Shown in pieces: positions 10,734 to 22,932 of a stretch of DNA of 64,000 nucleotides; positions within the stretch are counted from its first letter, which is position 1, and every line of letters begins with the position of its first letter. The notes under the pieces were generated by a model. The model did not search any database. It was not told where the DNA came from and saw nothing but the letters and a program-made list of their open reading frames with translations. The DNA comes from Acidobacteriota bacterium. Its GTDB lineage: Bacteria; Acidobacteriota; UBA6911; RPQK01; JAJDTT01. The translations under genes were made by a program, and so were the position numbers. The stretch lies in the NCBI GenBank assembly GCA_965217775.1, contig CBDCJH010000002.1, positions 5,120,001 to 5,184,000 on the forward strand, given 5' to 3'.

Positions 10734-12302
10734 TCACTCCTCCTGTCTTTCCGAACTCAGGGCTTCGATCAGTTCGGCGGCTTCTTTCCTGGCCCCCTTC
10801 AGATCTCCTTCCAGGCCCAGGACCTGCTGAAAGCGTTTCCGGGCCTCGGCCATGGAACCCTGGGAGGCCAGGATGCGGCCCATGCGGACCAGGGACAAGC
10901 CCCGGACCCACACGGGGGCGTTCGAATTGGAGACCCTCTCGTAGTACACGAACGCCCGCTGCAAGTCTCCCGTCTGAGACGAGATCTGAGCCATGTAGAA
11001 GAGACCGGTGGAGTTGCCCGGATCTTGCCGGAGGAGCTCTTCCAGGCGCTGCCCGGCCTCTTTAAACTGCTTCTGAGCCATCAGTTTTCCGGCCTCGTTG
11101 AGGAGCGAAATGATGAGGTTTTTCCGCTCCACCCGCTGCCGTTCGCGGTCTTGGGCTTCCTGGAGCTCCCTTGCTTCTTCCGCCAGCGATTCCTCCATGG
11201 CCGCGATGGCGGATTCCGCCTCCTTCAGGCTGTCCTCGTCCAGGTCCTGGAGGAGCAGTTCGGCGTAAGCTGGAAAAGAAAGCAGCCCGCTGCTCTCATA
11301 TTCGACCAAATGGCGGTAAAAGGATGGGAGGGCCACCAGTCCCTGTCGAAAAAACCCGACGATCTCCCGCCTGGGGTCGTCGGGCGGGTGCATCCTCAGA
11401 CTCAGGCTTTCGATCATCGATTCGGCCAGGACAAGCAGAATCCGGTCCCGGTACTCGGGCTTCAGCTGGGGCTGTTTGTTGGCCAGCCGCAAGAGATTCG
11501 AGTCCTCGTCCATCCGGGCCACGTACTTCTCGATCAGAGGATCGATGAGCACGTGGAGGTACTCGTGCTGGAGCGCGACGTAGTTCTCCGCAGGGTCGTC
11601 CGCGGGCCCCACGATGACGTAGTAGACCCGTTCCAGATTCCGTGCATTCACGGTGTCCTTGGCATTGAGGAGGTCCGGAATGAAGATGATGGTTCGATCC
11701 AGGACTCTGCGCGGACCGATGCGGAAGTAGCGGAGCGTCTGATGGATCAATTCTTCGAGCACGGGACGGTAACGTTCGACTTCGAGTTCGTAGCGCTTGA
11801 GGTAGCTGGGCCAGAGCTCGGCGACGCGGGCGGGAGCGTAGAGTTCCCGCACCAGATCGGCGAAGCCTCGCAAGGGAACGATGTCTGCCGGCAGGTGGTC
11901 GGTCTCTTCCGGGAAGGTCAGCTCCGGGACGTCCGACAGGAGCAGCGCCAGGGAGATGTAGTCGGCGCTCTCCCGGCCCTCGTCCCGATACCGGCGGTGG
12001 GATTTGTAGTACGTCTTCAGCCGAAGAATCAGATCGGGATCGACTCCCTCCAGTTGCTGCCGGACCGCCTGCCGCTCCTGCGATAGGGTTTTCCCGGATC
12101 TCTCGTAGTCGAAGCCGGCGGCGTTGAGCGCGGTCATGACGGCGAACACACGGGCGTCGTTCTTGAACGTGATGTTGACCAGATCTTCCAGTGCGAGCTG
12201 CGAATCCTCCGGTGCCGGTTGCGGATCCTCCGCAGGGGTCTCCTCACACCAGACCGGTGTCGAAAACAGCAGAAAGAATGTGAGAAATCGGATTGGCGTC
12301 AT
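10734..12302 (-). CDS. secreted protein with C-terminal TPR repeats
   Basis: Signal MTPIRFLTFFLLF; HEYLH motif; C-terminal TPRs. Confidence 0.75.
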   Translation of the reverse strand: MTPIRFLTFFLLFSTPVWCEETPAEDPQPAPEDSQLALEDLVNITFKNDARVFAVMTALNAAGFDYERSGKTLSQERQAVRQQLEGVDPDLILRLKTYYKSHRRYRDEGRESADYISLALLLSDVPELTFPEETDHLPADIVPLRGFADLVRELYAPARVAELWPSYLKRYELEVERYRPVLEELIHQTLRYFRIGPRRVLDRTIIFIPDLLNAKDTVNARNLERVYYVIVGPADDPAENYVALQHEYLHVLIDPLIEKYVARMDEDSNLLRLANKQPQLKPEYRDRILLVLAESMIESLSLRMHPPDDPRREIVGFFRQGLVALPSFYRHLVEYESSGLLSFPAYAELLLQDLDEDSLKEAESAIAAMEESLAEEARELQEAQDRERQRVERKNLIISLLNEAGKLMAQKQFKEAGQRLEELLRQDPGNSTGLFYMAQISSQTGDLQRAFVYYERVSNSNAPVWVRGLSLVRMGRILASQGSMAEARKRFQQVLGLEGDLKGARKEAAELIEALSSERQEE

Positions 12303-12379
12303 CGTCCGCAGACCATCGTAATGCAGAAGTCGAGGAGTGAGAAGTGAGGAGATAGGAGAAAGAGGGAGCGTCGAGGCGG

Positions 12380-13378
12380 TCAGGGTCGGCGGGCGAAGTG
12401 ATCGAAGCCGTGGGCCGGATCCGTCTCCATGCTCTCGCCCGCGTCCGCCTGGCGGAGGAAGCCGAGGTGGCGCCATGCGGGCAAGTGCTCCGGGTATTCG
12501 GTCCGAAAGCGTTCCAACCGGTCGCCGGGAATCGCGGCCAGGAGAGCGTAGTCCTCTCCGCCGGCCAGTGCGCCCTCTCTGGAGATGGAGGCGGTCAACC
12601 CGGGTTCGAGCGGGATCCTGGGACCGGGCTCGAAGCGCAGACGGCTGTCGCCGGCCAGGCGCTGGAGGTCGATGGTCAATCCGTCGCTCACGTCGATCAT
12701 GGCGCTGGCAAAGCCGTTGCGGCGAAGCCAGTCTCCCGCCTGGATCTGCGGGGCGGGAAGGAAATGGGCTTTCAGACAGCGCCAGCGGAAGGAATCGCCG
12801 GCCCAGGCGGCCAACTCCTCCTCCTTCCGGATGTCCGCCAGCTCCGTCGGGTCCTCGCGCTCCAGGAGATTCAATCCGGCCGCGGAGAGGCCGACGTCTC
12901 CCACCAGAACGATGGCGTCACCCTCGGCGGCCGTGGACCGGTACACGGGTTCTCCAACTTCCACGTGGCCCCAGACGGTGACACCGGCGTGGACGGAGGA
13001 ACCCCGGGAAAGGTCTCCCCCCACCAGAGGGATCTTCCAACGCCGGACCTCCTCCAGAAAGCCGTCCATGAACGAGCGAAAGAAGCCGCCGGTCAGATCA
13101 GGTGGAAGAGTCAGGGTGAGCAGACAGGCGGACGGCAGAGCCCCCATGGCCGCCAGATCGCTCAGATTGACCAGCAACGCCTTGCGCCCCAGGAAGTAGG
13201 GATTCATCCAGCGCCGCCGGAAGTGAACTCCTTCCACCAGGACGTCGGTGCTCACCACCAGCCGGGATTGCAGTGCGGGATCCAAGACGGCGCAATCGTC
13301 TCCCACGCCCTTGAGGACGAAGGGAGACTCATCCTGTTTCTGATTCCGAATCCAACGGATCAACTCAGATTCGGTCAT
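12380..13378 (-). CDS. thiL: thiamine-monophosphate kinase
   Basis: GVGDDCAV, EGVHF, NLSDLAAMGA, GGDLS, DVSDGL, GGEDYAL. Confidence 0.97.
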   Translation of the reverse strand: MTESELIRWIRNQKQDESPFVLKGVGDDCAVLDPALQSRLVVSTDVLVEGVHFRRRWMNPYFLGRKALLVNLSDLAAMGALPSACLLTLTLPPDLTGGFFRSFMDGFLEEVRRWKIPLVGGDLSRGSSVHAGVTVWGHVEVGEPVYRSTAAEGDAIVLVGDVGLSAAGLNLLEREDPTELADIRKEEELAAWAGDSFRWRCLKAHFLPAPQIQAGDWLRRNGFASAMIDVSDGLTIDLQRLAGDSRLRFEPGPRIPLEPGLTASISREGALAGGEDYALLAAIPGDRLERFRTEYPEHLPAWRHLGFLRQADAGESMETDPAHGFDHFARRP

Positions 13379-13651: not shown

Positions 13652-14023
13652 ATGACCAATCCCATACCCCCAACCTTCACGCTCGGCGGTGAAGAATATG
13701 CCGTCGTCCCGCGCGCTGAATACGAGGCGTTGCGAAATGCCGTTGACGAGGACGCCATGGACGCCGCAATCCTTCAGCGTTTTCTGGAAGAGCCCGATCA
13801 AGAAGTCATCCCTTTCGAACTGGTCCGGCGCATTGTGAGCGGAGACCACCCGGTGCGGGTTTGGCGCGAATATCGGGGGATGAAGGCGAGTGAGCTAGCT
13901 GCGGCTGCCGGGATCGTGGCCTCCTACCTTTCGAATATCGAGACGGGGAAGAAGACGGGTTCAGTCAAAGCCATGAAGCGCATCGCCGACGCGCTCGATG
14001 TCACCGTGGATGATCTCCTCTAA
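13652..14023 (+). CDS. XRE-family HTH protein (HigA-like antitoxin; cognate toxin deleted)
   Basis: GEEYAVVPRAEYEAL; VRVWREYRGM...LA...GI..SYLSNIETGKK. Confidence 0.85.
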   Translation: MTNPIPPTFTLGGEEYAVVPRAEYEALRNAVDEDAMDAAILQRFLEEPDQEVIPFELVRRIVSGDHPVRVWREYRGMKASELAAAAGIVASYLSNIETGKKTGSVKAMKRIADALDVTVDDLL

Positions 14024-16918: not shown

Positions 16919-18212
16919 GTTCGTCCTCGCGTCTGGCCATGAAGCTGCCGCGTCCGGTTCGGACCCGAACCAGCTCGTGATCGGAAACCTGGGCGGCTTC
17001 TCGAACCACCTGCCCGCTGCCGGTCGTGATTATAGCGTAGCCTCGTTCCAGGACCGCCAGCGGTGAGTAGGCCTGAAGGCGTCCCGCGGTTTTCCCCAGT
17101 CGGTGCTTCAACTCCTTCAGGTAAAGGTCCATCCGATGTCCGAGGGCGATGGTCGATTGCTCCAGCCGGGTCGCGATGGGCGCCAGGAAAGCGGGGAGCG
17201 CCTTGTGGAATCTCCCGTGGAGCTCGTCGAGGCGTTGCAGGAAAAATTTGAGACGAGTCTCGGCGTCCACGAATCCGCGGCTGGCGGTGAGTGTACGCAG
17301 CCGCTCCTGTTTTCTGTGGAGAACCAGCGACATGGCCTGCAGGGCACGTTTCTCCAGATGCGCCGTCCGTTGAACCAGTTCCTCCCGGGCCGCGGAGACG
17401 GTTTCAGCCGCGGCGGACGGGGTTGCCGCCCTCACGTCGGCGACGAAGTCCGCGATGGTGAAGTCGGTCTCGTGACCGACGGCCGAGATCACCGGGACGC
17501 GAGATTCGAAAATGGTTCTGGCCAGGGCCTCGTCGTTGAATGCCCACAGGTCTTCCGTCGATCCTCCTCCGCGCGCGATGATGATGGCGTCCACGTCACC
17601 ACGCCGGGCCAGCTCCCGGATGCCTTCGGCGATTTGCGGGGGGGCCGTGGGTCCCTGGACCGTGGCCGGGTAGATCAGGACGCCGACCCGGTCGTTCCGC
17701 TCCTGGAGGACCCGGAGAATGTCCCGCACGGCCGCGCCGCTGGGGGAAGTCACCACCCCGACCTTGGCGGGAAACAACGGGAGCTTCAGCTTGTGGGCGG
17801 GGTCGAACAGACTCTCCTTGGAGAGCCGCTCCTTGAGTTGTTCGAAAGCCACCTGGAGCGCGCCGCGGCCCAATGGCTCCAGGTGACTCACCATCAGTTG
17901 GACCTGTCCTCTCGGCGCATAGACCGAGATCGAACCCCGGGCCAGAAGCTCCATGCCGTCCTCGGGCAGAAACTTCAAATAGCGGCGCCGCATCCGGAAA
18001 CAGACGGCCGGGATCTGCGCCGCCGAGTCCTTGAGGGTGAAGTAGAGGTGGCCGGACGGGGGAATTCGCAGGTTGGAGACCTCGCCCTGGACCCAGACGT
18101 CGCGGAATCCGGTCTCCAATCGGGACTTGATCTGATAGACGATCTGCGAAACGGACAGGATCCGGCGTTCTCCCAACTGTCCGAACTTCCCCATCATGTC
18201 GAGCTGCTTCAT
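16908..18212 (-). CDS. xseA: exodeoxyribonuclease VII large subunit
   Basis: GEVSN..SGHLYFTLKD, RGGGS.EDLWAFN, SAVGHETD, P..VLERGYA. Confidence 0.97.
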   Translation of the reverse strand: MKQLDMMGKFGQLGERRILSVSQIVYQIKSRLETGFRDVWVQGEVSNLRIPPSGHLYFTLKDSAAQIPAVCFRMRRRYLKFLPEDGMELLARGSISVYAPRGQVQLMVSHLEPLGRGALQVAFEQLKERLSKESLFDPAHKLKLPLFPAKVGVVTSPSGAAVRDILRVLQERNDRVGVLIYPATVQGPTAPPQIAEGIRELARRGDVDAIIIARGGGSTEDLWAFNDEALARTIFESRVPVISAVGHETDFTIADFVADVRAATPSAAAETVSAAREELVQRTAHLEKRALQAMSLVLHRKQERLRTLTASRGFVDAETRLKFFLQRLDELHGRFHKALPAFLAPIATRLEQSTIALGHRMDLYLKELKHRLGKTAGRLQAYSPLAVLERGYAIITTGSGQVVREAAQVSDHELVRVRTGRGSFMARREDEREI

Positions 18213-18386
18213 CGGAATTCCGAGCTGTTCCTGAACACTAGCACCCCGCCGGCTTCCCATTTAAGGCGAATGCAGTGTCTTTGTCATTCGCGTCCGGCGG
18301 GCCGACTCGGAACTGATGGTAGAGATTCCTCCGACGCTCTGAGGGTAATAAAGGACGGCGAGTCATAACTGTCGCCACCCTCTACA

Positions 18387-19325
18387 TCAGACTGAGTTCC
18401 ACGACGAATCGAGGGTGATCGTTTTGGATGTCATGGCCTTCATGGTGAAGATTAGAACCAGAATATTGTAGGTCGTGTCGAACGCCTCAGCGACGCACTC
18501 ATGCGGCACATTATTCCTGTCGAGGAATGGGATCAAGACAGGTCGAGTCATCCTGCAACCGATTGGCAACACTGGCCAAAGGAAATGATCGGGGGTAATC
18601 GTGGTGTCGTTGGGTAGACCAAACTGAGTAATGAAGGAGGGTGATGCCTCAATGCGCCGAACCGAGGCCCACATTGCGTTATCTCCAAATCCATCAGTCT
18701 CAACGGGATTCAGGACATAGACGACGCACGCGCTGTGGTTGGTCCGGGCGTATTCTCGGATTGAGGCATAGATGGAGGCCCCGAACTTCTTCGCAAGGCC
18801 GATCGGGGTTTTGATTCCTAATTCGCAGTCTGCAGCGTGGTCCGAAAAGGTGTTTCCCTTGAAGATCGCAAAGCGGGCGAAATTATTCGCCTCGCGCTCG
18901 AACTGATCTGTGATCTCCGGTGCAAGGGTCTTACGACAATCTTGGAAGAACCGGAACAACTTGCGATGCGTTGGCATCTCATGATGGGCAATTTCATGGA
19001 GTTTCAAGAAAGTCTGTTTAGCAAGTACGACACTGCCGTCGACGTGGATGAGTTTTTCACCGGCATCGTACAGGGCCAATACTTTGGCAATCGCTGACTT
19101 GATAAGGGCCCCCGTTCTGGTCGCCTTATCGTTGACATAGGAGAGAAGGGCGCGGCGATCAAAAGCGCTGGTGGGCGCAACCTGAACCTTGGCAGCCGCA
19201 AGAATGTCAGCTATGGGGATCGGGTATTTGTTCCAAGCATCGGCTCGGTCGAGGAGCCTTCTTGATCGCTCCTCGACCGCGCGCAGGTCTCCGGGATCAA
19301 GGCTGCTGTCGTCAGGTTTTATCAC
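18387..19325 (-). CDS. ImmA/IrrE-family metallopeptidase (CapP-like)
   Basis: HEIAHH (HExxH) and EREANNFA; overlaps the HTH gene. Confidence 0.85.
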   Translation of the reverse strand: MIKPDDSSLDPGDLRAVEERSRRLLDRADAWNKYPIPIADILAAAKVQVAPTSAFDRRALLSYVNDKATRTGALIKSAIAKVLALYDAGEKLIHVDGSVVLAKQTFLKLHEIAHHEMPTHRKLFRFFQDCRKTLAPEITDQFEREANNFARFAIFKGNTFSDHAADCELGIKTPIGLAKKFGASIYASIREYARTNHSACVVYVLNPVETDGFGDNAMWASVRRIEASPSFITQFGLPNDTTITPDHFLWPVLPIGCRMTRPVLIPFLDRNNVPHECVAEAFDTTYNILVLIFTMKAMTSKTITLDSSWNSV

Positions 19326-19677
19326 GGGGTAATTTCCTGTGAGATCGAAGGAATTGGAGATACCGTATCAATTCAGATTCTTCCTCAGATGTCAGTTGAT
19401 GCTCGGAAAAAGCCGCAACTCTGCCACGTCTTTCTTCGCTCCGTTTGGTTACTGCCGCGACGTATCCAGCCAGTTCCATGAGCCTTTCGAAGCTGATGCC
19501 GTAGGTCTCCGCCAGTGCATACAGGATATTGGGCGAAGGCTTCTGGATTCGGTCATTCTCAATCTGGCTGAGATAGGCGTTTGATACTCGCCTATTCGTT
19601 GCATCTTCGACCGCGCGCAGTGTCATTTTTCGGTCTGTCCGAATCGATATGAGATATTCTCCCAGCGTTGTCTCCAT
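19312..19677 (-). CDS. XRE-family HTH repressor (CapH-like)
   Basis: LGEYL..IR....MTLR.VE......VSNAYLSQIEND. Confidence 0.88.
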   Translation of the reverse strand: METTLGEYLISIRTDRKMTLRAVEDATNRRVSNAYLSQIENDRIQKPSPNILYALAETYGISFERLMELAGYVAAVTKRSEERRGRVAAFSEHQLTSEEESELIRYLQFLRSHRKLPRDKT

Positions 19678-19758
19678 GACCCCCCTTTCGATGGCTTCCT
19701 TGGTCAAGCGGACGTTTCTTCTCTAAACATCTTGGCGTCACCCTTCAGGAAAAATCAA

Positions 19759-19805
19759 GCGTGCGTATTTTTTGCTTGACATACTTAGCATGCGTATCTT
19801 AATAT
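19759..19805 (+). promoter_or_regulatory. putative sigma70 promoter/operator of the Ubl operon
   Basis: TTGACA at 19776-19781, TAATAT at 19800-19805; TGCGTAT direct repeats at 19762 and 19791. Confidence 0.55.
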
Positions 19806-19847
19806 GCAGATGACGGCGGGACGCGGTGTCCCGCAGAGCGAAGATCA

Positions 19848-20546
19848 ATGACCGGAGAAGTCAACATGCAGATTGTGAGGGCTTTCGATGAATGTCTTTT
19901 CGGCGTGGCAGTGGCCAAAGCCGACTTCGATTTCCAGGCTTTCAAAGTAGCCGACCCCAAGCCCACGGGTCGACAGCTACTCGAAGTGGCAGGTTTCAGG
20001 CCGGCGGAAGAGCATCTGCTTTTCCAGTTGCTCCAAGACGGGGCGCTTGAGGAGCGGCGCCTTGAAGAGACCGTTGAGCTACGTAAGAAAGGAGCGGAGC
20101 GCTTCATAGCATTCCGAAGTGATCGGTCTTTCCGCGTCGAGATTGACCAACGGCGTTTCGAATGGGGCGCAACCCAGCTGACCGGGCTGACCGCGAAGCG
20201 GATGGTCGGCGCAGACCCTTCGTGCACTGGAGTCTGGCTGGAGCGGCGAGACGGTCCCGATCTCTTCATCAAGGACTCCGACATTGTGAAGCTCACGGCA
20301 GCAGGGGTCGAGAAGCTCCGCACTGGTCCGTCATTCGCGCTCTCGATCGAGGGTAAGGAGTTCCAGTGGTCTGAGCCGACCATCTCCACGGAGCAGATCG
20401 CCCAGCTCGGAGGCTGGGATCCGTCGCAGGGCGTTCAGCAGATCGACCTGGACACAAACGAAGCCCGTACTCTCAAGCTGGATGAAATCGTCGATCTGAG
20501 GAAAATCAAGACCTTTGCGAAAAAGATCGGGTGGCAACGTGGCTGA
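19848..20546 (+). CDS. multi-ubiquitin-domain protein (3 beta-grasp units, C-terminal Gly)
   Basis: Three similar units (PTGRQLL..AG / LTG...KRMVG / ISTEQIAQLGG, each followed by a V.L motif); ends KIGWQRG-stop. Confidence 0.85.
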   Translation: MTGEVNMQIVRAFDECLFGVAVAKADFDFQAFKVADPKPTGRQLLEVAGFRPAEEHLLFQLLQDGALEERRLEETVELRKKGAERFIAFRSDRSFRVEIDQRRFEWGATQLTGLTAKRMVGADPSCTGVWLERRDGPDLFIKDSDIVKLTAAGVEKLRTGPSFALSIEGKEFQWSEPTISTEQIAQLGGWDPSQGVQQIDLDTNEARTLKLDEIVDLRKIKTFAKKIGWQRG

Positions 20547-20949
20547 GCGCGAACACCGCCTTGAGGAAGAATACAATCTCATCGCCACGATCTTTCGGAG
20601 TGTCGTTCGCTCGGGGGATTGGTTTCTTATTCCGGATGACGTTCGAGCGACACGACTCGGCTGGACTCCAGATCCGTTTCCGGTTGCGTTTCACGCGCAG
20701 GCACGACACCCAGGTCAGGTGCCGTACGGAATCTATGTGTCATCGTCCGCCCGGATCGGCGGCCAAATTCCGAACAATTTCAGCGCCAACGTGAACCATC
20801 GGCCGCCGTTCGAGGGGCCGTGGGGTGTTCTTTCTTGGCAAGGCGATGGCCATGGCATTCCCTGGATCCCGGCACAACGGATCCGCAAGGGGGCCAACCT
20901 GCTGAACTTTGTCATCACGTTCGAAGAAAGGTTCAAAGAAGGTGTCTGA
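20539..20949 (+). CDS. prokaryotic E2/UBC-fold protein
   Basis: Lies between the Ubl and JAB-E1 genes; W.LI, GW.P, HP...PYGIYV, W..LSW, L..F....EERF; GTG start overlaps the Ubl stop. Confidence 0.7.
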   Translation: MAEREHRLEEEYNLIATIFRSVVRSGDWFLIPDDVRATRLGWTPDPFPVAFHAQARHPGQVPYGIYVSSSARIGGQIPNNFSANVNHRPPFEGPWGVLSWQGDGHGIPWIPAQRIRKGANLLNFVITFEERFKEGV

Positions 20950-22327
20950 GGCCTCCAGAGAATGGAGACTCCGTTTTGGGACCGAGGCGCAGTACCAAGC
21001 ACTTCGGGCCGCGCTCCTACCTGAAGGATATGCGAAAGATCGCGAGCACGGCGCCTTTCTCTTCGCCTCTCCAGCCGACGATGCGGGACTGGACATCGTT
21101 GATGTCGTCGTGCTCAAGCCAGCCGATTTTGTTGTGCAGTCGAGCTGCTACTTGGAGCTGCACGAAAATGTGCTCCAGAAGATGATCGTCCATGCGCACA
21201 GGACAAATACTACACTAGTCGAGGTCCACTCACATCCCCATGCGGACGGGCCACTAGTGCGTTTCTCTCCCTTTGATTGTAAGGGCTTAGCCGAAATCGG
21301 ACCGCAGGTGTCGTGGCGACTTCCTGGGCGACCTTATGTCGCCGTGGTCTTCGGTCGGGATGGGTTCGATTCCCTCTACTGGGAGGGTCGAGAGCGGCGG
21401 CCGCAAGGCGCCGTGGACCTCGTCGTCGCGGGACAGTTGTTACTCGCGAGCCGTGAATCCGAGCGCTCTTGGAGGAGAAAAATCGTGGATAGATTTGATA
21501 GGCAACGGATGATCTTCGGAGACAATGGGCAGAGGCGCCTGCGCGCCACGTCAGTCGGTATCGTCGGTGGGGGAGGGCTAGGTTCATTCATGGTACTGGA
21601 ACTTGCCTATTTGGGGATTGGGAAGATCGTGATCATCGACGATGATCTGCTGGAGATCCCGAACCGGAACCGATTGGTGGGCGCTTGGGCGTCGCACGCG
21701 GTAGGAAAACCCAAAGTCCAGCTACTTCGCGACCTAGTTATGCTCATCGACCCTGATATCGAGATCGAGGTGGTGCAGGCCCGGGTCGAAAAACCCGAAG
21801 CAGAGGCTGCCCTTGCAAATGTGGATATTGTTGTGGGGTGCGTCGACAACGATGGCCCCCGTTTCGTGCTGAATGAATTATGCTGCCAACAAGGTCTGCC
21901 GTTAATCGATGCTGCAAGCGATACTATTCCCGAGAAGGACAGTGTTCTTTTCGGAGGAAGGGTTTGCGTTGCAACGCCGGAGACAGGCTGCCTCATGTGT
22001 TTCAATGTATTGGACCAAAATGAAATTCAAGACTACTTCGCTTCTCCGGAGCAACGGGCTGACCAGCTCGCGGTCTACGGCGTACCCGAGAGATCCTTAG
22101 GTGATGGAGGTCCATCGGTGATCACGGTCAACGGAGTGGTAGCGTCGATCGCAGCGACCGAGATGATGGTCCTGGTGACCGAGATCCGAACTCCGATAGC
22201 ACACCAAGAATGGCGTGGTGATGAGGGACGCCTGATTCCTGTCGTCGACCGTGAGGAAGACTGCTATTACTGCGGCTTGCGCCCCATCAACAGTCAGAAG
22301 GACTTGGCCGGCGGCGTGGCACAGTAA
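20942..22327 (+). CDS. JAB/JAMM peptidase - ThiF/E1 adenylyltransferase fusion
   Basis: EHGAFL, HSHP...FSPFD (JAMM); GIVGGGGLGS, DDD....N.NR, GCVD, CLMC/CYYC (E1). Confidence 0.88.
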   Translation: MSEASREWRLRFGTEAQYQALRAALLPEGYAKDREHGAFLFASPADDAGLDIVDVVVLKPADFVVQSSCYLELHENVLQKMIVHAHRTNTTLVEVHSHPHADGPLVRFSPFDCKGLAEIGPQVSWRLPGRPYVAVVFGRDGFDSLYWEGRERRPQGAVDLVVAGQLLLASRESERSWRRKIVDRFDRQRMIFGDNGQRRLRATSVGIVGGGGLGSFMVLELAYLGIGKIVIIDDDLLEIPNRNRLVGAWASHAVGKPKVQLLRDLVMLIDPDIEIEVVQARVEKPEAEAALANVDIVVGCVDNDGPRFVLNELCCQQGLPLIDAASDTIPEKDSVLFGGRVCVATPETGCLMCFNVLDQNEIQDYFASPEQRADQLAVYGVPERSLGDGGPSVITVNGVVASIAATEMMVLVTEIRTPIAHQEWRGDEGRLIPVVDREEDCYYCGLRPINSQKDLAGGVAQ

Positions 22328-22349
22328 GCCGAGACAGTCGCGTTTCCGC

Positions 22350-22790
22350 TCGAACCATTTCAAAAGGCGTTCCTCAACCGTCCCATTGTTCTGCGCGTCG
22401 ACGACCTCCTGCCGCTATCGGGCCGGCCCAATTGAGATCGTCGCCCGACATGCGCATCTCGTCCATAGAAGCACCTCTCCCGGATGTAGCGGATCGCCCG
22501 CTCCACTTTCCACTTCGTCTGGGCGCAATTGGGTTGGAAGGCTTGCAGCTCAATCCCCCAGTGACGGCTGAACCACAGAAACTCCCGGTGTCGGTTGACC
22601 GACCGCCATCCGAGAGCTTGTCCCCGATGATGATTGCTTTCATCTTGTCGAACAGAAGTTCCCTCGGCACACCCCCGAAGTAGCCATACGGTGCCTCCAA
22701 GCCTCGCATCACCAACGGCATAGTCTGACGAAATTAGTACCGTACCGCAGCTGAAAGAGCCGGAACTACGCGAAGTTCAGTTTCCCTGGG
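22350..22790 (-). pseudogene. IS21-family transposase (IstA) remnant
   Basis: YFGGVPRELLFDKMK; broken CKP...GK.ERPIRYIR motif; frameshifted. Confidence 0.7.
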
Positions 22791-22862
22791 TACCGCGGAG
22801 GAGTTTCGAATCATTGCACGGGTTTCGTGGGAGTCTGCCTCAGCGAGTGGCGCACCCCCCCC

Positions 22863-22890
22863 GGAGCGGGGACAGGAATGTCCCCGCTCC
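22863..22890. repeat. REP-like perfect palindrome
   Basis: GGAGCGGGGACA-GGAA-TGTCCCCGCTCC. Confidence 0.7.
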
Positions 22891-22932
22891 CATCCGGCGA
22901 CAAGAAAGTCGCCGCTCCGTTATGATTGCGCC

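Follow-up and report, generated by a model that had tools for sequence, protein, structure and literature searches.

The window analysed here, a 64,000-nucleotide stretch of an Acidobacteriota bacterium genome (NCBI GenBank assembly GCA_965217775.1, contig CBDCJH010000002.1, positions 5,120,001 to 5,184,000 of the forward strand), carries between xseA and accD an island that is likely to be a mobile, Bub-type operon for the conjugation of a ubiquitin-like protein (Ubl), placed under a switch of the CapH/CapP type. Three operon genes encode a Ubl with three beta-grasp repeats (Ubl3), an E2-like protein, and a fusion of a JAB peptidase to an E1 adenylation domain; two genes for putative regulators are transcribed in the opposite direction (Table 1). 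The system is Bub-like, of the kind that Iyer et al. called '6e', and not Bil-like, because its two enzymes are closest to BubB and BubCD, and because there is no Cys in the E2 and no conserved Cys in the E1 crossover loop. Conjugation would most likely proceed through Tyr and Ser oxyesters. To our knowledge, no ubiquitin-like cascades other than the Bub pathways run on oxyesters.

We propose the following mechanism, every step of which is taken from homology. The switch probably responds to DNA damage: CapH would repress the promoter-like site in front of the operon, and single-stranded DNA arising from damage or infection would activate CapP, leading to cleavage of CapH and expression of the three overlapping genes. 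Ubl3 would be translated with its terminal Gly already exposed, such that no processing is needed; the E1 domain would then adenylate this Gly and load the Ubl as an oxyester on the invariant Y379, from which it would move to Ser99 of the E2, and finally to a lysine on a target protein whose gene lies elsewhere. JAB, as the only peptidase of the conjugation system, would presumably remove conjugates, a task that canonical Bub operons are held to assign to BubE. Biologically, the system could serve in phage defence or in a general response to stress.

Table 1. Features of the island, in window coordinates
Feature	Position	Strand	Evidence or remark
Inserted island, xseA–accD interval	18261..22855	.	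Borders from alignment with same-genus genome G007
CapP-like ImmA/IrrE Zn-metallopeptidase, 312 aa	18387..19325	-	PADLOC capP E 6.8e-10, residues 86-203
CapH/DdrO-like XRE helix-turn-helix repressor, 131 aa	19312..19707	-	HTH_3 E 4.8e-10; PADLOC capH E 1.7e-7
14-nt direct repeat AGCRTGCGTATYTT	19758-19771 and 19787-19800	+	Flanks and overlaps the promoter-like site
Promoter-like site TTGACA-18-TAATAT	19776-19805	+	10/12 matches to promoter pattern
Ubl3, BubA-like, three beta-grasp repeats, 232 aa	19848..20546	+	Pfam Multi_ubiq E 1.6e-36, 3 stretches
Stand-alone cysteine-free UBC-fold E2, BubB-like, 136 aa	20539..20949	+	AlphaFold model, fold comparison and family profile
E2 Tyr63	20725-20727	+	Tyr in 105/116 representatives, Asp in 9
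E2 Ser99	20833-20835	+	Kept in 114/116 representatives
JAB/JAMM peptidase and E1 adenylation fusion, BubCD-like	20942..22327	+	461 aa from GTG 20942; 472 aa from TTG 20909
Crossover-loop Tyr (Y379 of 461-aa protein) in 'YG[VIL]'	22076-22078	+	Conserved in E1 relatives
IS21-family transposase fragment, right edge of island	22374-22721	-	NCBIfam transpos_IS21 E 3.1e-5

Direct sequence searches with the 136-residue E2-like protein returned no match in Pfam (to E 10), NCBIfam, PADLOC or the Protein Data Bank (PDB), so the protein was placed only through a family profile and by fold comparison. Its AlphaFold (AF2) model, with a predicted local distance difference test score (pLDDT) of 93.5, is closest to Citrobacter BubB (9eav_D; VIA Z 12.3, root-mean-square deviation 2.5 Å over 117 residues), followed by about 45 E2, UEV, UFC1 and RWD chains at Z 6-8.5, and the family profile matches BubB at E 6.6e-7 (HMMER). 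We therefore regard the UBC fold as confirmed; a previous interpretation of this DNA, made without database searches (hereafter the sequence-only reading), had named the absence of this fold as a reason to abandon its proposal. Foldseek, given the same model, returned nothing at E <= 0.001 and ranked BubB fourth among spurious Fab chains, with a TM-score of 0.63-0.66. At E <= 0.001 the family comprises 145 representative clusters; 77 homologues are of similar length, 60 of them exactly 136 residues long, and in 20 of the 145 clusters the E2 domain is C-terminal in proteins of 206-367 residues. Of these 20, 17 were aligned, and each of them is a Ubl fused to an E2 with a KRG motif at the junction.

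Cysteine is entirely absent from the window E2; among 116 family representatives, 55 are likewise Cys-free, and no alignment column has Cys in more than 15 of the 116. Position 101, Gln in the window, is His in 10 of the 116. Residues 63 and 101 covary: Asp63 is accompanied by His101 in 9 of 9 representatives, all of which read S99-x-H101, while Tyr63 goes with a residue other than His in 103 of 104. The 105:9 ratio of Tyr to Asp at position 63 comes from an alignment gathered with a Tyr-type profile and is not a population frequency. In the Asp-type motif, PDNF...FSWH, the spacing equals that of D299...S333-x-H335 in Citrobacter BubB, and the pattern PDMF/LDM...(W/F)S(R/W)H, with the conserved Trp after it, is seen in five E2s of the same phylum that are more distantly related. 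Given the covariation, the motif spacing and these five relatives, Ser99, Tyr63 and Gln101 of the window E2 would correspond to S333, D299 and H335 of Citrobacter BubB. The window E2 thus appears to keep the nucleophilic Ser without the published Asp and His helpers, the pair D63 and H101 being present in only 9 of the 116 representatives.

As the sequence-only reading had proposed, the third gene of the operon is a single open reading frame (ORF) that joins a JAMM peptidase to a ThiF domain. Its E1 part, a single adenylation domain of about 275 residues, matches ThiF in Pfam at E 1.1e-41; its JAB part matches Prok-JAB weakly (17.2 bits against a cut-off of 25), with the JAMM residues E35, H96, H98, S109 and D112 (461-residue numbering) conserved and the E..HSH..S..D motif intact. 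For the AF2 model of the fusion (pLDDT 92.1), the top eight Foldseek matches are full-length Citrobacter BubCD chains, at E 4.5e-30 to 1.2e-27, and the next are ThiF, UBA5, MccB and MoeB. BubCD was not recovered from the PDB when the JAB part and the E1 tail were searched apart. The Tyr of the 'YG[VIL]' motif is present in the window, in all eight readable E1s of related loci (the ninth, L005, is not among them), and in every E1-bearing homologue among the rows listed, which make up half of the alignment; none of these E1 sequences has a conserved Cys in the crossover loop.

Ubl3 ends in ...WQRG followed by the stop codon (Arg-Gly-stop). Its best PDB match is the Ubl3 of an E. coli Type II Bub system (9cd2, E 7e-27), with a Citrobacter Type I Bub entry (9d59, E 2.6e-23) and BilA from the Type II Bil system of Methylobacterium brachiatum (8u38, E 3.2e-20) also matched. 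The three Multi_ubiq stretches and the matches to solved Ubl3 structures bear out what had been read from the sequence, namely a three-repeat protein ending in Gly and, as that reading required, of beta-grasp type. The C-terminus of the Ubl could be read in 19 related loci, of which 17 share the RG-stop ending (of the other two, one has two extra residues and one runs on into the E2); we conclude that the ready-cut Ubl is the family design and not the product of a frameshift. An ATG at 19866 may be an alternative start of Ubl3. The GTG start of the E2 gene overlaps the Ubl3 stop (GTGGCTGA), and GTG 20942 of JAB-E1 overlaps the E2 stop (GTGTCTGA), in agreement with the coupling of the three genes noted earlier. 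With its Gly-ending beta-grasp Ubl, its Cys-free UBC-fold E2 with an invariant Ser, and its JAB-E1 fusion that has a crossover Tyr and no catalytic Cys, the operon shows three features that define Type I Bub; the BubAB (Ubl-E2) fusion, which JAB cleaves in Type I Bub, is absent here, as Ubl and E2 are separate ORFs in different frames.

An HExxH peptidase gene and an XRE helix-turn-helix (HTH) gene had been described as facing away from the operon, and their PADLOC matches and likeness to DdrO uphold this assignment. The 131-residue HTH protein matches ClgR (E 8.2e-6) and 7t5u (E 5.1e-5) in the PDB, and Deinococcus DdrOC aligns to its residues 15-130, that is, over its full length. The 312-residue protein has a metal motif, H110-E111-x-x-H114 plus E143, and ImmA/IrrE clusters score 0.98 in a comparison with a protein-cluster atlas. 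The 29-residue spacing from His to Glu equals that of H100-E129 in Thauera CapP (Lau et al., 2022 preprint). Such a pair, an XRE HTH protein beside an HExxH ImmA/IrrE peptidase and next to an operon promoter, is what characterises CapH/CapP; the same layout, at the promoter of a defence-type operon, is seen for CapH/CapP in CBASS (the antiphage signalling system based on cyclic oligonucleotides) of E. coli MS115-1, and resembles Deinococcus DdrO/IrrE. The two genes are separated from the operon by a 140-bp gap that contains the promoter-like site; the region has 3 sites of this kind, where 2.1 would be expected. We consider the direct repeat AGCRTGCGTATYTT in this gap a candidate CapH operator. 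The HTH and M78 pair adjoins seven of nine related genome loci, both exceptions being disrupted by insertion sequence (IS) elements, and the pair, or at least the M78 gene, adjoins three of the four metagenome loci with at least 1.2 kb of upstream sequence. An association of this kind has been described before: CapH and CapP were reported in 168 of 544 Bub operons (Ye et al., PMC11601596), and Lau et al. (2022 preprint) had connected CapH/CapP with systems of the 6a and 6e.2 kinds.

The related loci also share an absence. Whereas bubE is stated in PMC11601596 to be present in all Bub operons, no DUF6527 gene was found among 176 ORFs flanking 21 related loci, and eight of the nine host genomes of related loci gave no six-frame DUF6527 match anywhere; the matches in the ninth lie more than 2.7 Mb from the operon. 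By contrast, DUF6527 is directly downstream of a fused JAB-E1 in three of five same-phylum operons of the Asp/Ser/His type, in a comparison of BubE with E2 type that involves small counts and related, non-independent genomes. Two Bub operons of the Asp/Ser/His type with a stand-alone E2 and a fused JAB-E1 (L030 and L031, in genomes G368 and G403) are in genomes that have no DUF6527 match, such that the absence of BubE may not be limited to the Tyr-type subfamily.

More tentatively, we suggest that the subfamily could represent a third Bub class, in which the Ubl is made in mature form, the E2 Ser is paired with Tyr63 instead of with Asp and His or Lys and His, BubE is dispensable with JAB as the sole deconjugase, and the tie to CapH/CapP is far tighter (10 of 13 loci, against a published 31%). 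Tyr63 itself might carry the Ubl, giving a Tyr-to-Tyr relay. In our literature search, a query for 'Type III Bub' and for the Bub proteins led only to the two 2024 preprints, and Table S1 of PMC11601596 may list such operons. Since BubE and Ubl processing are dispensed with and the E2 active site is different, the subfamily amounts to a minimal, three- or four-protein version of Bub, with which it can be asked which residues make the Ser oxyester reactive, what purpose BubE serves, and what role JAB has where there is no processing. The family also displays gene fusion in progress, Ubl and E2, and likewise JAB and E1, each being fused or split among close relatives. The gain is nonetheless incremental, because the regulatory link and the general architecture have already been published.

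For the E1 domain paired with the E2, complex prediction gave a score of 0.72, against 0.00 for the best control; 58 of 80 solved complexes reached this mark, as did 2 of 110 mismatched pairs. Three prediction runs agree in at least 93% of contacts, with a partner pLDDT of at least 91, and the interface comprises residues 352-379 of the E1 protein and residues 63, 97-99 and 101 of the E2. That this interface takes in Y63 and residues 97-99 of the E2, together with the crossover loop of the E1 as far as Y379, argues against an alternative that we consider unlikely: that the E2-like protein is an inert RWD/UEV adaptor that binds Ubl or E1, as in the description of 6e by Iyer et al., with the Ubl passing from the E1 Tyr directly to targets, or else that Ubl3 forms a non-covalent, Ca2+-dependent filament. 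UEV and RWD proteins are indeed among the fold matches (Tsg101, Z 7.8; GCN2 RWD, Z 6.2), and the catalytic Ser lacks its Asp and His partners. Ser99, however, is nearly invariant and is in S-x-H register with the Ser whose catalytic role is proven, and Citrobacter BubB, which has the same fold, is described as catalytic (PMC11601596). As for a filament, when aligned with E. coli Ubl3 the window Ubl3 is seen to keep the Asp of 'SDR' and the Glu of 'VE(K/R)L'; we take these to be the Ca2+ ligands D73 and E136 given in PMC11601603, assuming an offset of two residues.

Several observations weigh against a working Bub-type operon under CapH/CapP control. Tyr63 and Gln101 replace Asp and His, such that the Ser may be less reactive or the E2 inert. 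The HMMER pairwise alignment sets Tyr63 opposite D299 and S99 opposite Citrobacter S337, not the catalytic S333; we believe, from the motifs, that this placement is four residues out of register. A reading of that alignment as evidence that the catalytic Ser is not conserved was ruled out by the D63/H101 covariation and by the five relatives of the D/S/H type. The successful E1-E2 prediction may reflect likeness to, or memory of, the solved BubCD-BubB complexes (9eae/9eav). The CapP match is weak and limited to residues 86-203, the C-terminal third (100 residues) has no domain assignment, Peptidase_M78 in Pfam is below threshold (16.6 bits against a cut-off of 22), and a PDB sequence search with the 312-residue protein gave no match. 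CapP proteins consist of a peptidase, an HTH-like linker and a GAF domain; in the window pair, no GAF domain, cysteine switch or CapH cleavage site was identified. The island has no BubE/DUF6527 gene (PF20137), a component of Type I Bub whose absence the sequence-only reading overlooked, and the single DUF6527 of the window genome is about 720 kb away, inside a separate, complete Type II Bub operon. Lastly, the Discussion of PMC11601596 reports that E. coli has not so far been protected against phage by any Bub operon, and the suggestion in the sequence-only reading of a function that is 'probably anti-phage' therefore goes beyond the evidence.

That the island is a true insertion of about 4.6 kb follows from the spacing of its neighbours, xseA (Exonuc_VII_L, E 9.1e-93) and accD, which are 4,624 bp apart in the window and only 111-651 bp apart in eight of eight same-genus genomes (G001-G008), all of which lack the island. 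The lower G+C content noted in the sequence-only reading is also real (0.51-0.60 over approximately 18250-22750, against 0.61-0.68 in flanking DNA). No target-site duplication was seen in the alignment of the island borders. An unpublished genome, G014, appeared in the comparisons and supports no claim here. The five ORFs previously listed agree with the ORF list and the sequence, and to them we add the IS21 fragment at the island end, which covers only positions 163-226 of the 294-position profile and has copies of 68-76% identity elsewhere in five same-genus genomes (G001, G002, G004, G006 and G007). At its right border, the island is delimited by a palindromic element of about 60 bp with the core GGAGCGGGGACAGGAATGTCCCCGCTCC (22857-22918); many copies of this element are present in the same genome and in same-genus relatives, and it looks REP-type. 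Operon-bearing Logan contigs of 4,765 nt (runs X1 and X3) span window positions 18149-22913, with ends that nearly coincide with the island borders, either because a flanking repeat breaks the assembly or because the population is mixed for the island.

JAB and E1 are separate, overlapping genes in different frames in nine of nine related genome loci, and are likewise split in six of the seven metagenome loci that hold both parts (L024 is ambiguous); a 2-nt length difference in the A-rich stretch AGGAGAAAAATCG joins the two frames in the window. Full-length fusions also occur in the set of 120 best homologues, where they make up three clusters at 72-73% identity and two distant ones; the other 114 are E1-only proteins of 258-333 residues. 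The fused frame is identical in contigs of four runs, which come from one study and are possibly the source of the assembly. Since these contigs agree, and since there are other full-length fusions among the homologues, we interpret the fusion as real; a homopolymer sequencing error is unlikely as its cause, as the contigs show no difference. A very improbable reading of the locus as a whole takes it for cargo in decay: a Type I Bub operon, now non-functional, from which an IS21 event at the right edge removed BubE. The IS21 fragment directly downstream, the lack of BubE, the joining of JAB and E1 by a mere 2 nt, and a relative (L008) that is visibly degraded and lies beside an IS200 element would all fit such decay. 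Nonetheless, all five island ORFs are intact with every conserved motif kept, BubE is missing across the subfamily, and both the fusion shared by the three other clusters and its constancy across the four runs speak against this reading.

Further Bub-related loci were noted in the course of this work. The Type II Bub operon of the same genome (L002, on contig 2; 8197-10068 on the minus strand and 11149-12587 on the plus strand) encodes an 85-residue single-domain Ubl, a 397-residue DUF6791 and ThiF protein, and the 149-residue DUF6527 protein, and has its own regulators, an HTH protein of 161 residues and a Peptidase_M78 protein of 311 residues, which are only 27% identical to the window pair; a DDE transposase gene lies beside it. 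Other related operons are found among defence-type or mobile genes (L003, 9968-13461; L004, 172-3165 and 7323-11237; L011, 3264-6153 and 9771-13389), with neighbours that include a 531-residue deaminase-domain protein with DUF429, a Type ISP restriction enzyme, a TCAD9 kinase with an AAA_21 ATPase, HEPN proteins, DUF4238 proteins and phage integrases. No relatives were found in viral contigs or phage records, and there was one plasmid match, L034, on a mobilizable plasmid of Candidatus Tenderia electrophaga (CP013100.1, 3350-5797). This locus encodes a Ubl3-E2 fusion of 347 residues, together with a JAB-size gene (177 residues) and an E1-size gene (295 residues). Position and length were the only criteria for these assignments; each gene carries the annotation 'hypothetical protein', and the family is unnamed in public records. 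Elsewhere in the window, the C-terminal half of a 123-residue ORF at 13652-14023 on the plus strand looks by eye like an XRE-type HTH, and could belong to an antitoxin or small regulator.

Of the 'Bub/Bil-type' label given in the sequence-only reading, the Bub half stands and the Bil half does not. A thioester-based Type II Bil ubiquitination system with a Ubl3 is scarcely credible, being already contradicted by a Cys-free E2 and by a single-domain E1 with no conserved crossover-loop Cys (Bil enzymes have a catalytic Cys in E2 and E1, and an IAD-AAD-CYS E1), with best structural matches to BubB and BubCD and then to ThiF, UBA5 and MoeB, even though Ubl3 also matches M. brachiatum BilA and relatives with four separate genes have the Bil order Ubl-E2-JAB-E1.

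Among known systems, the island is most like Type I Bub (6E.1) of Citrobacter sp. RHBSTW-00271, which is described as comprising BubAB, BubCD and BubE (PMC11601596). Both have a three-beta-grasp Ubl that ends in Gly, a Cys-free UBC-fold E2 with a Ser, and a JAB-E1 fusion with a crossover-loop Tyr; CapH and CapP are frequent in such operons, and the Citrobacter proteins are the closest structural matches of both window enzymes, at an identity of only 14-18%. Three features of Type I Bub are missing from the island: the fused BubAB, an Asp and a His as partners for the Ser of the E2, and BubE. Unlike in Citrobacter, the window Ubl and E2 are separate and translation of the Ubl stops right after the Gly, such that processing by JAB would not be needed, and the Asp299 and His335 of BubB are replaced by Tyr63 and Gln101. 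The 6e operons of Iyer, Burroughs and Aravind (2006; PMC1779556, Table 1) also resemble the island: they have a polyUbl, a JAB-E1 fusion and a Cys-free protein, described as 'inactive E2/RWD-like', that is separate from the Ubl in most species. The island lacks their metal-binding protein 'Y', which we infer to be DUF6527/BubE. Type II Bub (6E.2) of E. coli ZDHYS365 (BubA, BubBD and BubE) provides the best sequence match to Ubl3 and shares the Tyr/Ser oxyester chemistry proposed here, but differs from the island in that its E2 and E1 are fused, JAB is absent, and BubE is present.

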